Below are positions 4,230 to 57,537 of a DNA stretch of 64,000 nucleotides, one piece after another. The stretch lies in NCBI GenBank assembly GCA_963828605.1, contig CAWHER010000001.1, forward strand, positions 152,204 through 216,203, in the 5' to 3' direction. Numbering within the stretch: position 1 is the first letter of the stretch; each line of letters starts with the position of its first letter. The position numbers and the translations under genes were made by a program. Source of the stretch: an uncultured Actinomycetota bacterium (lineage in GTDB: Bacteria > Actinomycetota > Actinomycetes > Mycobacteriales > QHCD01). Below the pieces are notes generated by a model, which was not told where the DNA came from, did no database searches, and saw nothing but the letters and a program-made list of their open reading frames with translations.

Positions 4230-4259
4230 CTAGAGTTACTCACTAGTGGACGACTCTAG
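4230..4259. promoter_or_regulatory. Probable TetR operator
   Basis: ctagagt-N4-cactagtg-N4-actctag: outer inverted repeat and inner palindrome share one centre, in the divergent intergenic region. Confidence 0.6.
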
Positions 4260-4274
4260 AGATAAACTAAAGCC

Positions 4275-4940
4275 ATGACGGATGTCAAGCAGACCGGGAA
4301 GCGGGCCCGGCGGGCGCAGGAGACGCGCCGGCGGATGGTGGACGCGGCCCACGCGTTGTTCGTCGAGCAGGGGTACGGCGCCACGTTGCTGCCGGAGGTC
4401 GCGGCCCGGGCCGGCGTAGCGGTCCAGACGATCTACTTCACGTTCGGGAACAAACGGTCCCTGCTGAAGGAGGTCGTCGACGTGGCGATCGCCGGCGACC
4501 TTGAGCCGGTGGCCACGATGGATCGCGCGTGGTTCCGCGCCGTGGTCGAGGCCGACACCGTCGAGACCGGCCTGCGCGCCCTGGTCGCGGGCACGAAGGA
4601 GGTGCTGGTCCGGGCCGCACCGATCACCAAGGTCCTCGAGGCGGCCGTCGCCGCCGATCCGGAGGTCGGCGAGATCTGGCCGCGCTCGGAGAATCCCCGG
4701 TTGACGGTGCAGACCGCCGCCGCGAAGGCCCTGGTGTCGATGTCCGGGCTCGCCGCGGGACTGACCCTGAGACAGACCACCGACGCGCTCTACGGGCTGC
4801 TGAGTCCCGAACTCTTCCTGGTCATGGTGCAGGAACGCCGATGGTCACCCGAGCGCTGGGAACGGTGGGTGTTCGCGCTGCTGCGCTCCCAGCTTTGCGC
4901 GCCGGCTGCGGCAGGCCACCGCGTCGGCTCGGTAGCGTGA
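4275..4940 (+). CDS. TetR/AcrR family transcriptional regulator
   Basis: N-terminal HTH (VAARAGVAVQTIYFTFGNK); TAAACT-N6-ATG leaderless architecture. Confidence 0.92.
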   Translation: MTDVKQTGKRARRAQETRRRMVDAAHALFVEQGYGATLLPEVAARAGVAVQTIYFTFGNKRSLLKEVVDVAIAGDLEPVATMDRAWFRAVVEADTVETGLRALVAGTKEVLVRAAPITKVLEAAVAADPEVGEIWPRSENPRLTVQTAAAKALVSMSGLAAGLTLRQTTDALYGLLSPELFLVMVQERRWSPERWERWVFALLRSQLCAPAAAGHRVGSVA

Positions 4941-53697: not shown

Positions 53698-54971
53698 TTA
53701 CCGACCGGTAACCGCGTCGTCGTCACCCTGGACCGATCGCAGGGCGGTGGCGAGCGGGGCGGCGGTGAGCTCGACCTGCCACGGCCGGGCCAGGCGCCCC
53801 CGGAGCTCCCCGGCGACCGTGTCCGTGGTGACCGGCTCGGGCGGTCGCCAGGCCAGTCGGCGTACGGCGTCGGGCGCGACGAGGTTCTCGGTCGGTATTT
53901 CGATCCGTTCGGCCAGACCGGTCATGGCGGTCCGCACGGCCGTCAGCCGCGCAGCGGCCTCCGGGTCGCGGCTGGCCCACCGATTGCTCGGCGGCGGGCC
54001 GTCGGAGTCGCCGGCAGGGGTGGTCGGCGGCAGCTCCGCCGGCGGCCGGGATCGGGCGTCGGCCACCGCCCGCCACCAGCGGCCGAGCAGCCGGCGGTTG
54101 CCCCGTCCGGCGAAGACCGGCAGCGCCCGCAACTCCTCGGCCGAGGTCGGGTCGGCCACCGCGGCACCGATGATCGCCGCGTCGGGGAGCACCCGGCCCG
54201 GCGCGATGTCGCGTTGGCGGGCGATCTCGTCCCGGGCGGTCCACAACGCGCGGACGGTGGCGAGCTGGCGGGCGGACCGGACCTTGTGGATCCCCGAGGT
54301 GCGGCGCCATGGATCCACCCGGGGCGGGGGCGGGGGCGCGGCCACGAGGGCGGCGAACTCCTGGTGGGCCCACTCCAGTCTCCCGGCGGCCTCGAGCGCC
54401 GCGTGCAGCCCGTCCCGGAGCTCGACCAGGAGCTCGACGTCGAGGGCGGCGTAGACCAGCCAGTCGTGCGGGAGCGGGCGGGTGCTCCAGTCCGCCGAAC
54501 CGTGTCCCTTCACCAGGCTGATCCCGAGCACTCGCTCGAGGATCGACGCCAACCCGACCCGCGGGATAGTTCAGGAGCCGCCCGGCCAGTTCGGTGTCGA
54601 AGAGCCGGCGCGGGCGCGTGCCGAGCTCGGCGAGGCACGGCAGATCCTGGCTGGCCGCGTGGATGACCCACTCGGCGTCGGCGAGCGCCCGGTCGAGGGC
54701 GCTCAGGTCCGGGACACCCGACCGGGTCGATGAGCACCGTTCCGGCGCCGGCCCGGCGCAGCTGGACCAGGTAGGCGCGTTGGCCGTAGCGGTAGCCGGA
54801 GGCCCGCTCGGCGTCGACGGCGACCGGTCCCTCGCCCGCGGCGAGGCGCTCGCACACGGCGACCAGCGCGGGTTCGGTCGTCACCGGCTCGGGCACACCG
54901 TCCCGTGGCGCACGCAACACCGGTACGGGGGGAGCGGGCGGACCGTCCGTCGGGATGGGCTCGGCAGCCAC
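53698..54971 (-). pseudogene. rnd: Ribonuclease D (3'-5' exonuclease + HRDC), with two +1 indels near 54712 and 54565, probably assembly errors
   Basis: AVDAERASGYRY..RAYLVQLRR, then HAA.QDLPCL, FDTELAG, then K.H..ADWS.RPLP..WL.YAALDVE and HRDC WRRTSG. Confidence 0.85.
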
Positions 54972-55681: not shown

Positions 55682-55933
55682 CCTGGGTCCTCCCTGTCCG
55701 CCCCGTGCTCCGGCGGCGTCGTCGATCGTCGGCTCGTGTCAAACGCCGTACGATCGGTCCATATGGAACGGCCACGATGATCCCGTTGCCCACTAGGAAT
55801 GCTACTCCGTTCGGGGTATTTTGTGCTGGGGTTGCGTGGGGATGAGAACGGCACACGCAGCGTCATGGACGACACCGGCTCACCGTGCTCGATCGGCGTG
55901 ACGCGGGAGCCGCGGGAGAAAAGAGGTGCCTGG

Positions 55934-56119
55934 ATGCGGCGACTGGTAGCGAGAATTGCGGCCACTCTGGCGGGACTCGCGCTCGCGGTAGGCATCGCGG
56001 CGACCGGGGGGCACACCGTACGACCCGCTGACGGCTCGTCCTGGAGTCTCGCCGGCTCGTCGTGGAGCTTCTCGGCGGTTCAGCAGCCAGACGTCTGGGG
56101 ACACGCGGACCGGCGGTGA
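55934..56119 (+). CDS. Small secreted peptide (61 aa) with two GSSWS repeats; candidate signalling-peptide precursor
   Basis: aagaggtg RBS, Sec-type signal MRRLVARIAATLAGLALAVGIAA, ADGSSWS-LAGSSWS, GTGA overlap with the next gene. Confidence 0.7.
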   Translation: MRRLVARIAATLAGLALAVGIAATGGHTVRPADGSSWSLAGSSWSFSAVQQPDVWGHADRR

Positions 56120-57537
56120 ACCCTCGGGGGAAGATCCTGCTGACGGCCGGACTGCTCGGGGCGGTCGCGGCCGCCCTGTGCGTCCGCCTCGGCTGGGGCT
56201 CGCCCGCCTGGTGGGCATTGCCCGCCTTTGTCGTTGCCGTCACGGTCGCCGAGTTCGCCACGGTCCGGATGGTGATCGGGCGGCAGGGCTACTCGGTCGC
56301 CCTGACCGACGCGTTCGTCGCGATCGGCTTCGTGCTCGCGCCGGGCGCCTGGATCCCGCTCGGCGTGCTGCTGGCGTTCCTGTTGGCCAACGCCCGCCGG
56401 TCGCCGTGGATCAAGCTCGTCTTCAACCTCACCCAGTACCCCTGCGCCATCGCCGCCGGACTGCTGGTCGCTCAGGCCCTCGGCCAGGGAATTCCGGCTG
56501 CGGCGGTCGGCCTCATCGTCTTCGCGTGCCTGAACTACCTGCTGGTGGCCATCCCCATCGCGATCACCGCGCACCGGCGCTACGCCGCGGTGGTCGCCGA
56601 GACCAGCGGCCTGGGCATGGTCCACGTCGCCGGCAACATCTCCCTCGGCCTGCTGGCCGCCTGGCTGGCCGAGAATGCCCCGCTCGGCCTGCTCGGGCTG
56701 GTCGTCCCGCTGGTCCTCCTGTGGTGGTCCTACCGGCAGCAGACCGAACGCACGGCCGAGGCCAGGCTCTTCGCCGAACTCGCCCGCGGCCGCGAGCAGA
56801 TCGCCGCCACATCGGTCGACACCTCGGCGCACGTGCTGCTCACCGCGGCCGCCCGGCTCTTCGGTGGCGCCGAGATCGAGATGCTGCTGCGCCACCCCGA
56901 CGGACCGGTGCGCTACGTCGGTGACGAGCACGGGGTCATCCGCCGGGAGCGGGTGGACAGCGGCGCCTTCGCCGCCCCCTGGGTGCTGCGCACGATGGGC
57001 GCCCGCGGCGTCCTGACCGGCGTCGACGCCGACCGGCCGTTCTGCTCGGCCGTCCTCGGCGACCCCGGTCGCCCGCTGGCCGTGCTCATCGCGCGGCGGC
57101 CGAGGCGGGCCGGGGGCTTCGAGCGGCTCGACGCCCGGCTCGCGCAGGTGCTGGTCGGTCAGGCCGAGGCGTGGCTCTCGGTCGCGGATCTGGCCGCCCG
57201 GCACGACGTGGCGGTCGGACAGATCGAGGCCTACGGCGACGCCACCCGGGCCCTCGGGGACCTCGGGGCCTACACCGCGCCCGCACTCGTCGTACTCCGG
57301 GAATCGGCGGAGCGGCTGTCCCGCCTCGCCTTCTCCTTCACCGGACCCGATCCGGTGCGGGACATCGTCGACGAACTGCATGCGGTCGAGCGTGCCGTCG
57401 CGTCTCTGCTCGGTGCGGTGGCCCTGACCAGCGAACCCGAGCTGGTCGGCCCTGCCGATGATCGCCGGGCCCCCAGCGTGGGCTCCGACTCCGAGTGGAC
57501 CACGACGGGACGGCTCGACGCAGTCGAGACCCGGTGA
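56116..57537 (+). CDS. Multi-TM membrane sensor (MASE9-like N-terminus, inferred) with a GAF-like cytoplasmic region and no evident catalytic output
   Basis: About 7-8 hydrophobic segments in the first ~210 aa with a KLVFN motif; cytoplasmic region ending in GF...D..L..VL..QA..WL; GTGA overlaps at both ends. Confidence 0.75.
   Translation: MNPRGKILLTAGLLGAVAAALCVRLGWGSPAWWALPAFVVAVTVAEFATVRMVIGRQGYSVALTDAFVAIGFVLAPGAWIPLGVLLAFLLANARRSPWIKLVFNLTQYPCAIAAGLLVAQALGQGIPAAAVGLIVFACLNYLLVAIPIAITAHRRYAAVVAETSGLGMVHVAGNISLGLLAAWLAENAPLGLLGLVVPLVLLWWSYRQQTERTAEARLFAELARGREQIAATSVDTSAHVLLTAAARLFGGAEIEMLLRHPDGPVRYVGDEHGVIRRERVDSGAFAAPWVLRTMGARGVLTGVDADRPFCSAVLGDPGRPLAVLIARRPRRAGGFERLDARLAQVLVGQAEAWLSVADLAARHDVAVGQIEAYGDATRALGDLGAYTAPALVVLRESAERLSRLAFSFTGPDPVRDIVDELHAVERAVASLLGAVALTSEPELVGPADDRRAPSVGSDSEWTTTGRLDAVETR

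Follow-up and report, generated by a model that had tools for sequence, protein, structure and literature searches.

This study concerns a gene for a 61-residue peptide (P0001) and the membrane sensor (P0002), histidine kinase (P0003) and response regulator (P0004) encoded next to it in a stretch of 64,000 nucleotides from an uncultured Actinomycetota bacterium (GenBank assembly GCA_963828605.1, contig CAWHER010000001.1, positions 152,204 to 216,203 of the forward strand), which was analysed as a whole and is referred to below as the window. The peptide gene is genetically coupled to the genes for the sensor, the kinase and the regulator, and it is the short tryptophan (Trp) unit of the peptide, not the protein carrying it, that travels with the membrane domain of the sensor. 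The co-inheritance of the peptide with sensor, kinase and regulator in several actinobacterial families points to an undescribed peptide-signalling system. We consider it highly probable that the peptide is encoded by a true gene and that this gene has a functional link to the sensor. For the more specific reading, namely that the peptide or its fragments are the ligand of the sensor in an autoregulated peptide-signalling circuit, we see slightly better than an even chance.

Several features of the peptide open reading frame (ORF) had been pointed out in a preliminary description of this DNA, and they held when they were checked. The ORF is nested in the longer frame 55799..56119, which is the only one given by the mechanical ORF list, an aagaggtg ribosome-binding site precedes ATG 55934 and lies at 55921-55928, and translation of 55934..56119 yields the 61-aa product as first written. 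It had also been noted that the two GSSWS copies of the peptide (56033-56047 and 56054-56068) use different codons, and the differences are indeed confined to TCC/TCG and AGT/AGC, both of which are synonymous. The assembly of the window is 65% complete and three congeners were available for comparison, giving four genomes of the genus in all. The peptide ORF is found at the same place in all four, as is the sequence gagaaaagagg, and in each of them the TGA of the peptide gene overlaps the GTG (56116 in the window) of the sensor gene to form GTGA, a feature that goes beyond the preliminary description. At the protein level, VRPADGSSWSLAGSSWSFS is invariant in the four genomes despite many synonymous codon changes. 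The pairwise ratio of nonsynonymous to synonymous substitution rates (dN/dS) of the peptide gene is 0.08-0.18 among the four species, with a proportion of synonymous differences (pS) of up to 0.45, and that of the adjoining sensor gene is 0.04-0.07. The peptide gene is under purifying selection; selection on the peptide had been suspected from the two GSSWS copies. In one congener (L002), an indel shifts the sequence upstream of the ATG into another frame, and because the upstream frame is lost there we place the translation start at 55934 and not at 55799 or 55898. It is on account of this evolutionary evidence, that is, selection, a conserved Shine-Dalgarno sequence and a fixed start, that we rate the ORF as a real gene.

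A word-indexed protein search with the peptide returned two matches, both of them 85% identical and named 'hypothetical protein', one of which is the 106-aa long frame. Sequence search gave only these two matches, and the more distant relatives described below were found by synteny with the sensor gene. P0001 has no Pfam or NCBIfam family (Pfam at E<=0.1), and when 29 of the peptides were compared with Pfam and NCBIfam, none scored above the cutoffs, with PDGLE, MctB and an Rv1419-type lectin as single sub-threshold matches. The sequencing runs listed for the locus are small-share soil and rhizosphere DNA, with no RNA run among them. The coordinates of the features discussed here are collected in Table 1.

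Table 1. Features of the peptide locus, with positions counted from the first nucleotide of the window.
Feature	Position	Strand	Remarks
Pre-peptide gene P0001, 61 aa	55934..56119	+	ATG 55934, TGA 56117-56119
Shine-Dalgarno sequence aagaggtg	55921..55928	+	spacing to ATG 55934 is 5 nt
Putative leader: MRR, then hydrophobic core of ~16 residues	55934..56011	+	heuristic scan; candidate cleavage after residue 23, 25 or 26
Trp motif 1, ADGSSWS (W37)	56027..56047	+	aligns with ADGLTWT / NDGLTWI of sister genera
Trp motif 2, LAGSSWS (W44)	56048..56068	+	without counterpart in the sister-genus loci L005 and L006
Trp motif 3, QPDVWG (W55)	56084..56101	+	aligns with PDGLTWT / PSGLTWT of sister genera
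Membrane sensor P0002, 473 aa	56116..57537	+	start overlaps peptide stop (GTGA)
HisKA_3 histidine kinase P0003	57495..58619	+	Pfam HisKA_3 1.3e-5, HATPase_c 1.2e-11
NarL/LuxR-family response regulator P0004	54974..55681	-	Pfam Response_reg 5.8e-19, GerE 8.5e-19; divergent from peptide operon
16-bp imperfect palindrome TACTCC-N4-GGGGTA	55803..55818	.	midway between regulator and peptide genes; 116 nt before ATG

Orthologues of P0002 (E<=1e-30) are present in 80 of the 401 genomes sampled from the order. They belong to six families, in which they occur in 8/8, 3/3, 45/47, 2/3, 15/16 and 6/7 genomes, and none was found in six other families with 46-47 genomes each. Public records of relatives are entered under uncultured Mycobacteriales, Frankiales, Acidothermaceae, Frankiaceae or Pseudonocardiales as metagenome-assembled genomes. 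Upstream of the sensor gene, the sequence was read at 76 orthologous loci; three more loci lie at contig ends and one partial match was left out. In 32 of the 76 loci the slot upstream of the sensor is occupied by a small ORF of 42-87 aa with a basic N-terminus, a hydrophobic core and one to three Trp motifs, and in two others (L068 and L093) such a leader is followed by five or seven ANSWS copies with variable spacers. At 26 loci the same slot holds a Peptidase_S8 gene, the product of which ends in a C-terminal run of xxxWx units such as ASSWS, ANAWA, ASSWA or GAWGA. Pfam confirms 24 of these 26 proteins, the other two being cut by contig ends, and the Asp, His and Ser catalytic motifs of the S8 family are visible in three of them (L031, L032 and L034). 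Nothing recognisable was seen upstream of the sensor at the remaining 16 loci. The small-peptide form occurs in five families and the S8 form in one family only, to which 15 of the 16 empty loci also belong.

The preliminary description had linked GxxW repeats to the C-termini of some secreted S8 peptidases encoded beside comparable membrane sensors. Such proteins do exist next to the K-x-x-[FY]-N domain of this sensor, with 24 Pfam-confirmed examples upstream of P0002 orthologues and 15/15 among the further paralogues described below. In the sensor tree, the S8-type family forms one starred clade that is sister to a peptide-type family. Since the base of the orthologue clade is unresolved and only a midpoint root is available, we do not claim a direction, from protease tail to peptide or the reverse. 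The carrier in the window is a 61-aa peptide without an S8 domain, and its sensor domain and upstream slot are as in the S8 loci. The absence of a protease from this carrier is an argument for the Trp unit itself as the partner of the sensor, as opposed to the protease.

Retention of the Trp motif by homologues, on which the preliminary description had made its reading depend, is seen across five families. In an alignment of six sequences, sister genera included, residues D33, G34 and W37 of motif 1 and residues P52 and W55 of motif 3 are invariant (6/6); motif 3, QPDVWG, had not been noticed before. Because motifs 1 and 3 match the two motifs of the sister genera, LAGSSWS is an extra copy inserted in this genus. 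The peptide of the window is longer than those of the sister genera and its last Trp is six residues from the end. In total, 33 upstream peptides contain 52 Trp units. Asp precedes the Trp by four positions (-4) in 24 units and Gly by three (-3) in 26; Ser or Thr stands immediately before it (-1) in 35, and it is followed (+1) by Ser, Gly, Thr, Asp or Glu in 48. In 21 of the 33 peptides the stop codon comes right after W-x, so that the Trp is the penultimate residue. As a control, the regions upstream of 1528 long ORFs of the window's own genome with high G+C content at third codon positions (GC3) were scanned by the same criteria, and none of the 92 leader-like small ORFs with a Trp found there ends in W-x-stop. 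The 33 peptides are related and not independent of one another, and the W-x-stop feature spans five families. The idea that the gene encodes a multi-copy precursor can be kept in part: forms with five to seven ANSWS copies and variable spacers do occur, but 22 of the 33 peptides have a single motif, so that multiple copies are a feature of certain lineages and not the rule.

The suggestion that the peptide is secreted finds support in the leader, which resembles a Sec leader by a rule of thumb (basic N-terminus, hydrophobic core, small residues at -3/-1), while export itself is predicted only. Each of the 33 peptides starts with a basic N-terminus and contains a hydrophobic window, none of them has a Trp in the first 22 residues or in any leader, and AxA-like sites such as AQA, AGA or ASA follow the core in most homologues by the same heuristic. 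If cleavage occurs at these sites, the mature peptides of many homologues would be 14-17 residues long.

The link between Trp unit and sensor domain extends beyond the orthologues. With a cutoff of E<=1e-3, a profile of the membrane domain matched 4389 representative proteins, of which 1469 remained at E<=1e-10. When 23 of the matches were scanned with Pfam, six proved to be GGDEF-EAL proteins, eleven (GAF-)PAS-HisKA kinases and one a SpoIIE phosphatase, three had no output domain and two were wrong-frame gene calls running through S8 tails. In five genomes of the S8-type family, all 15 S8 paralogues examined (L119-L133; one to five pairs per genome) have tails with a Trp at every fifth residue, and each of them is followed by an ORF that matches the hidden Markov model of the sensor domain with E-values of 2e-35 to 1e-10. 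Each paralogue within a genome has its own unit, namely STSWS, ARQWA, SGAWT, TTNWG or GQSWY, and in a second genome the orthologues show these five units again. Units that are specific to a paralogue and conserved between orthologues are the pattern expected of specific ligand-receptor pairs.

Seven more distant paralogue loci were also read. One of these has an S8 gene with an ARSWA tail. At a second (L036, 4497-4813), a leaderless ORF encoding nine tandem GAQWGQ[LF]DR units lies directly upstream of a gene for a GGDEF-EAL protein with the sensor domain. At a third (L035, oriented ~4245-4715), seven tandem 7-codon genes, each reading M-R-G-A-T-W-G-stop and each with its own Shine-Dalgarno sequence, lie directly upstream of a gene for a GGDEF-EAL protein with the same sensor domain. 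This array, one per genome, is present in 7/7 genomes of one genus (L035 and L113-L118; ~9 Mb each) with five to seven copies, the third codon positions of which vary. It was found in 0/5 genomes from the other three genera of the family, and a reversed-pattern control gave no hit in 12 genomes.

Two candidate fusions of an S8 protease with a sensor among public gene calls (P0008 and P0133) were set aside as likely artefacts of gene calling or assembly, with the Trp-repeat region read in the wrong frame (QLGRSQLG...). The genome of the window itself, at 65% completeness, contains no other clear Trp-repeat protein and shows only repeats of ambiguous frame. One of these, outside the window on contig C1 at ~2,007,819 (minus strand), is a tandem 15-bp repeat that reads as GSTVW x7 or as GLDGV repeats depending on the frame; no S8 or sensor context was seen around it.

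The sensor P0002 has no Pfam or NCBIfam match (Pfam E<=0.1), including to PF07694, LiaF and ABC transporter families. An AlphaFold2 model, made from an alignment of 23 orthologues and with a mean predicted local distance difference test (pLDDT) score of 79.6, shows an N-terminal helix and a helix bundle at about residues 26-210, besides a small beta hairpin (50-61). Behind these come an alpha/beta domain of the GAF-like kind at 234-336, two long helices at 337-439 and a disordered tail. In an exhaustive comparison with VIA-align, residues 26-190 matched S-components from transporters of the energy-coupling factor (ECF) type in nine PDB entries with Z 10.7-14.1. The best of these, 4hzu_S, reached Z 14.1 with a root-mean-square deviation of 3.3 over 159 of 164 residues, followed by 5kbw_A (TmRibU) and 4m5c_A (NikM), both with Z 13.7, and by RibU, BioY, CbiM, FolT and ThiT entries with Z 10.7-12.6 (CbiM 11.7). 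Residues 209-377 matched GAF domains, with Z 14.2 for 3jab_B and Z 13.8 for the GAF-B domain of DevS (2vks_A). A Foldseek search of the model against the PDB gave no match at E<=1e-3, and the fold call rests on VIA-align; we trust the S-component match because nine different entries are each matched over nearly all of their own chain. A complex prediction with residues 1-232 of the sensor and residues 25-61 of the peptide as its mature form gave a score of 0.01 (mark 0.32), which counts neither for nor against binding. In the K-x-x-[FY]-N motif of the sensor, K100 is invariant and F103 and N104 are nearly so. Residues W461, T462, T464 and G465 in the disordered cytoplasmic C-terminal tail are invariant as well (57496-57510 in the window). 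As a side observation, this tail carries (D/E)-W-T-[TS]-T-G in 23/23 orthologues, a sequence reminiscent of the Trp motif of the peptide.

In its fold, the receptor is closest to the 5TMR-LYT receptor kinases. LytS-type kinases also carry a GAF domain, and a cluster of that kind in a protein atlas came up as a low-scoring lead. The model of P0002 likewise combines an S-component fold of six helices, to which one more helix is added at the N-terminus, with a cytoplasmic GAF domain behind it. According to the passages of Partipilo and Slotboom that deal with these kinases (PMC11109136), LytS, BtsS/YpdA and KinB have an S-component fold with an extra N-terminal helix, their conserved motif is NXR, and among Gram-positives they are found almost only in Bacillota. 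P0002 differs from them in that it has no PF07694 match, carries K-x-x-[FY]-N in place of NXR and is split from its kinase, and in that the proposed ligand is a peptide and not pyruvate. On the evidence of the model, P0002 is a separate family that shares the 5TMR-LYT fold, since PF07694 does not match although the fold is the same. The S-components of ECF transporters work with an EcfT/EcfA module and are marked by an AxxxA motif in helix 1; for P0002, the fusion to a GAF domain, together with the presence of its membrane domain on proteins of the GGDEF-EAL, kinase and phosphatase types, speaks for a role as a receptor. An AgrB-like processing protein was also considered, for which P0002, without a Pfam family, gives no match; because its domain serves as the input of GGDEF-EAL, kinase and phosphatase proteins, a peptidase or cyclase is not suggested.

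An orthologue of the kinase P0003 lies directly downstream of the sensor in 23/23 loci, and an orthologue of the regulator P0004 is found divergent upstream, within the 1.5-kb flank, in 21/23 loci (74-99% identity). The N-terminus of the kinase consists of two helices with a very short loop, as in intramembrane-sensing kinases, and offers no sensing loop of its own. LiaS-type kinases are among its best NCBIfam matches, with low scores. In LiaF-LiaS and BceAB-BceS too, the HisKA_3 kinase has two helices with hardly any loop outside and depends on a separate membrane protein for its input. Unlike these systems, P0002 has an S-component-like bundle and a GAF domain, lacks a LiaF or ABC transporter match in Pfam and is accompanied by a peptide gene of its own. 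The palindrome between the divergent genes occurs in its strict form in 25 of the 76 loci, all of which are of the small-peptide type (25/32) and which come from four families. It is situated 265-363 nt upstream of the estimated sensor start, and the spacer around it diverges. NarL binds inverted heptamers in a 7-2-7 arrangement, which the palindrome appears to resemble. We propose that the palindrome is a candidate operator of the NarL-type regulator, which would make the divergent region autoregulated. A terminator scan flags the same sequence as a short hairpin with a T run (TTTT), and it could be an RNA element instead of an operator.

Taken together, we infer the following circuit from the anatomy of the locus and its co-inheritance. 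The pre-peptide would be exported by the Sec pathway and its leader removed, leaving ~35-38 residues; in the window, the [D/x]-G-x-[S/T]-W-[S/G] motif would occur three times in them. This peptide, or pieces of it that end one residue after the Trp, would then act as the extracellular ligand of the co-translated P0002 by binding to the pocket of the S-component-like bundle. Via its GAF and helical part, P0002 may relay the signal to P0003, the HisKA_3 kinase without a sensor of its own, which would hand it on to P0004. This NarL-type regulator probably feeds back on the divergent promoter through the conserved palindrome. The result would be an autocrine circuit, which is possibly dependent on cell density.

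Several observations weigh against this circuit. Within the genus the mature core of the peptide does not vary, and it stays similar from family to family. Pheromones that are strain-specific, such as ComX and the autoinducing peptides (AIP), are usually variable, and a core of this kind is therefore better explained by a fixed ligand or a structural partner than by a pherotype signal. The 16 of 76 sensors without an upstream peptide or tail, next to whose start no W-x-stop mini-ORF was found either, indicate that the sensor can exist without an adjacent partner, and four of the seven distant paralogue loci (L037-L040) are likewise without a Trp element. The M-R-G-A-T-W-G mini-genes and the repeat protein of L036 have no leader, from which it follows that these forms would use another export route or act inside the cell. 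On the structural side, S-component-like bundles can score Z ~13-14 from their common architecture alone, and the membrane topology of the model is ambiguous between seven and eight spans. Lastly, the small ORF has a GC3 of 0.77, and the genes on either side of it have 0.92; the GC3 of the peptide frame is the highest of the three frames by a small margin, which makes it weak as a coding test.

The main rival explanation is that the small protein is an accessory subunit of the sensor, one that does not diffuse because its anchor stays uncleaved or because it is bound to the surface. Its Trp tail would sit permanently on the sensor and set or gate its activity, the way small partners act in other intramembrane-sensing systems, and the real stimulus would be a different one. 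Translational coupling through GTGA, which suggests a fixed proportion of the peptide to the sensor, is in keeping with a subunit, as are the conservation of the motif in place of diversification and the protease-tail forms, which would keep the Trp repeats on a large protein. PDGLE is a small membrane partner of CbiM/NikM-type S-components, and the sensor bundle also matches NikM (Z 13.7) and CbiM (Z 11.7) in structure. The peptide of L005 shows a PDGLE match of 19.5 bits, but this is below the cutoff of 27 and the only one among 29 peptides. Furthermore, the cores are short (~16 residues in the window) and are followed by AxA-like sites in most homologues, as in leaders that are cleaved, and both the M-R-G-A-T-W-G genes and the L036 repeat protein lack any membrane segment, which is difficult to reconcile with an anchored subunit. 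We regard an accessory subunit as unlikely, though as a possibility to be taken seriously.

A second alternative would see the peptide as a bait that reports extracellular proteolysis or stress on the envelope or on secretion, with the sensor reading whether Trp units are intact, trimmed or absent. The system would in that case tune protease or envelope genes and would not count cells. In one family an S8 protease with its catalytic motifs fills the slot; peptides whose tails extend past W-x, such as that of the window, would need trimming; and intramembrane-sensing HisKA_3 kinases, among them the LiaS type that appears in the low-scoring NCBIfam matches, are typically sensors of envelope stress. 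The locus in the window contains no protease gene, however, and units that are specific to each paralogue suggest specific recognition and not a generic bait. Both parts of this explanation, the reporting of proteolysis or stress and the tuning of protease or envelope genes, seem improbable to us.

In its logic, the proposed circuit is closest to ComQXPA, in which a small precursor likewise carries a Trp near its C-terminal end and is joined by a receptor that is a polytopic membrane protein, by a kinase of the HisKA_3 type and by ComA, a regulator of the NarL type. One might ask whether the peptide is a ComX-like pheromone with a modification on its Trp, such as a prenyl group, added by an enzyme whose gene lies elsewhere in the genome. 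According to the portions of the published accounts that treat the precursor, ComX precursors have 52-73 aa with the Trp third or fourth from the C-terminus (PMC5331326, PMC4008528), and ComP is described as a polytopic receptor kinase with HisKA_3 (PF07730) and HATPase domains in the census of ComQXPA, in the main text of which the word Actinobacteria is absent (PMC4008528). The precursors studied here are of similar size (42-87 aa) and have a Trp near the C-terminus, penultimate in 21 of 33 peptides and not third or fourth, and the kinase has the same PF07730 and HATPase domains as ComP. In ComP, the polytopic domain is fused to these kinase domains, whereas here it is S-component-like, joined to a GAF domain and placed on the separate protein P0002. 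No counterpart of the adjacent isoprenyl transferase ComQ is found in the window locus, nor is a ComQ-like or other modifying gene in the 23 orthologue flanks. The ComX family PF05952 matches neither P0001 at E<=0.1 nor any of the 29 peptides at E<=0.01. The peptides studied here also differ from ComX, for which the papers cited describe no such leader, in their Sec-type leader, in their varied carriers (multi-copy precursors, protease tails and mini-genes) and in their actinobacterial hosts, and the tandem units of the protease tails are hard to square with a single modified Trp. A ComX-like pheromone is very improbable.

Least probable of all is that the Trp motifs form a module for attachment to the cell wall or membrane, linked to the sensor through shared regulation only: Trp-rich repeats do anchor some surface proteins of Gram-positive bacteria, and the protease forms would gain from being retained at the surface, but a mature peptide of 14-17 residues with a single terminal motif has nothing to anchor, and the pairing with one membrane domain holds whether its output is GGDEF-EAL, HisKA, SpoIIE or none.

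The reading of the peptide as the ligand of the sensor also invites comparison with two other systems. In the agr system (AgrD/AgrB/AgrC/AgrA), a small precursor gene lies next to the genes for a polytopic membrane protein, a kinase and a regulator, and, as is probable here, the system is positively autoregulated. The present locus differs by its Sec-type leader, by the lack of a Cys that could form a thiolactone, and by a regulator of the GerE/LuxR (NarL-type) instead of the LytTR kind. The alpha-factor of yeast and its protease Kex2 show the same arrangement of short tandem units with spacers as L068 and L093, and a protease of the S8 family is linked to the repeats in the sister lineages. 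In contrast to alpha-factor, the repeats in these bacteria are fused to the protease or free-standing and show no dibasic cleavage sites; the systems also differ in that these hosts are prokaryotes and the receptors are not related.

Peptide pheromones that are read by membrane kinases are textbook knowledge for Bacillota. In the literature covered here, with most subscription journals and supplements outside its scope, we found no description of this peptide family, of the pairing of Trp tails with a sensor, or of such pheromones in Actinomycetota. Within the field of peptide signalling via a membrane receptor and a two-component system, the receptor family and the proposed ligand motif are new, and the alternative carriers are unusual. 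More broadly, we tentatively put forward, at distinctly less than an even chance, that Actinomycetota possess a large undescribed family of peptide-receptor pairs, in which a unit of five to seven residues with a Trp next to its C-terminal end is read by a membrane domain of the S-component fold and serves as an address, the window representing the minimal form. If so, up to five pairs with different units would coexist in one genome, each of them kept between orthologues, and the means of delivery would be interchangeable, be it a Sec-exported mini-precursor, a multi-copy precursor, the tail of a secreted subtilase or an array of 7-codon genes. A secreted subtilase might then cut out its own signals. 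The receptors would feed kinases, cyclic di-GMP enzymes and PP2C phosphatases, and the form in the window would show that the peptide unit is the ligand. A system of this kind would provide a defined candidate ligand that can be synthesised for an orphan sensor family with thousands of members, and it would explain the Trp-repeat tails on secreted subtilases of related bacteria. It would also offer peptide-receptor pairs that are orthogonal by nature and could serve as parts for signalling, and it would add a class of ligands for receptors of the S-component fold outside Bacillota, beyond the small-molecule sensors treated in the relevant passages of PMC11109136.

The wider neighbourhood of the locus consists of housekeeping genes only, namely for a thiolase, RNase D, a DUF3000 protein, uroporphyrinogen decarboxylase (hemE) and a hemY-like product of the amine-oxidase type, and no peptide-modifying enzyme, polyprenyl-synthase-like domain or protease gene is present in it. 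The RNase D gene is broken into two ORFs that overlap on the minus strand (53701-54552 and 54513-54971), and each of the two has a portion of the 3'-5' exonuclease domain; this reflects either a frameshift or an assembly error.

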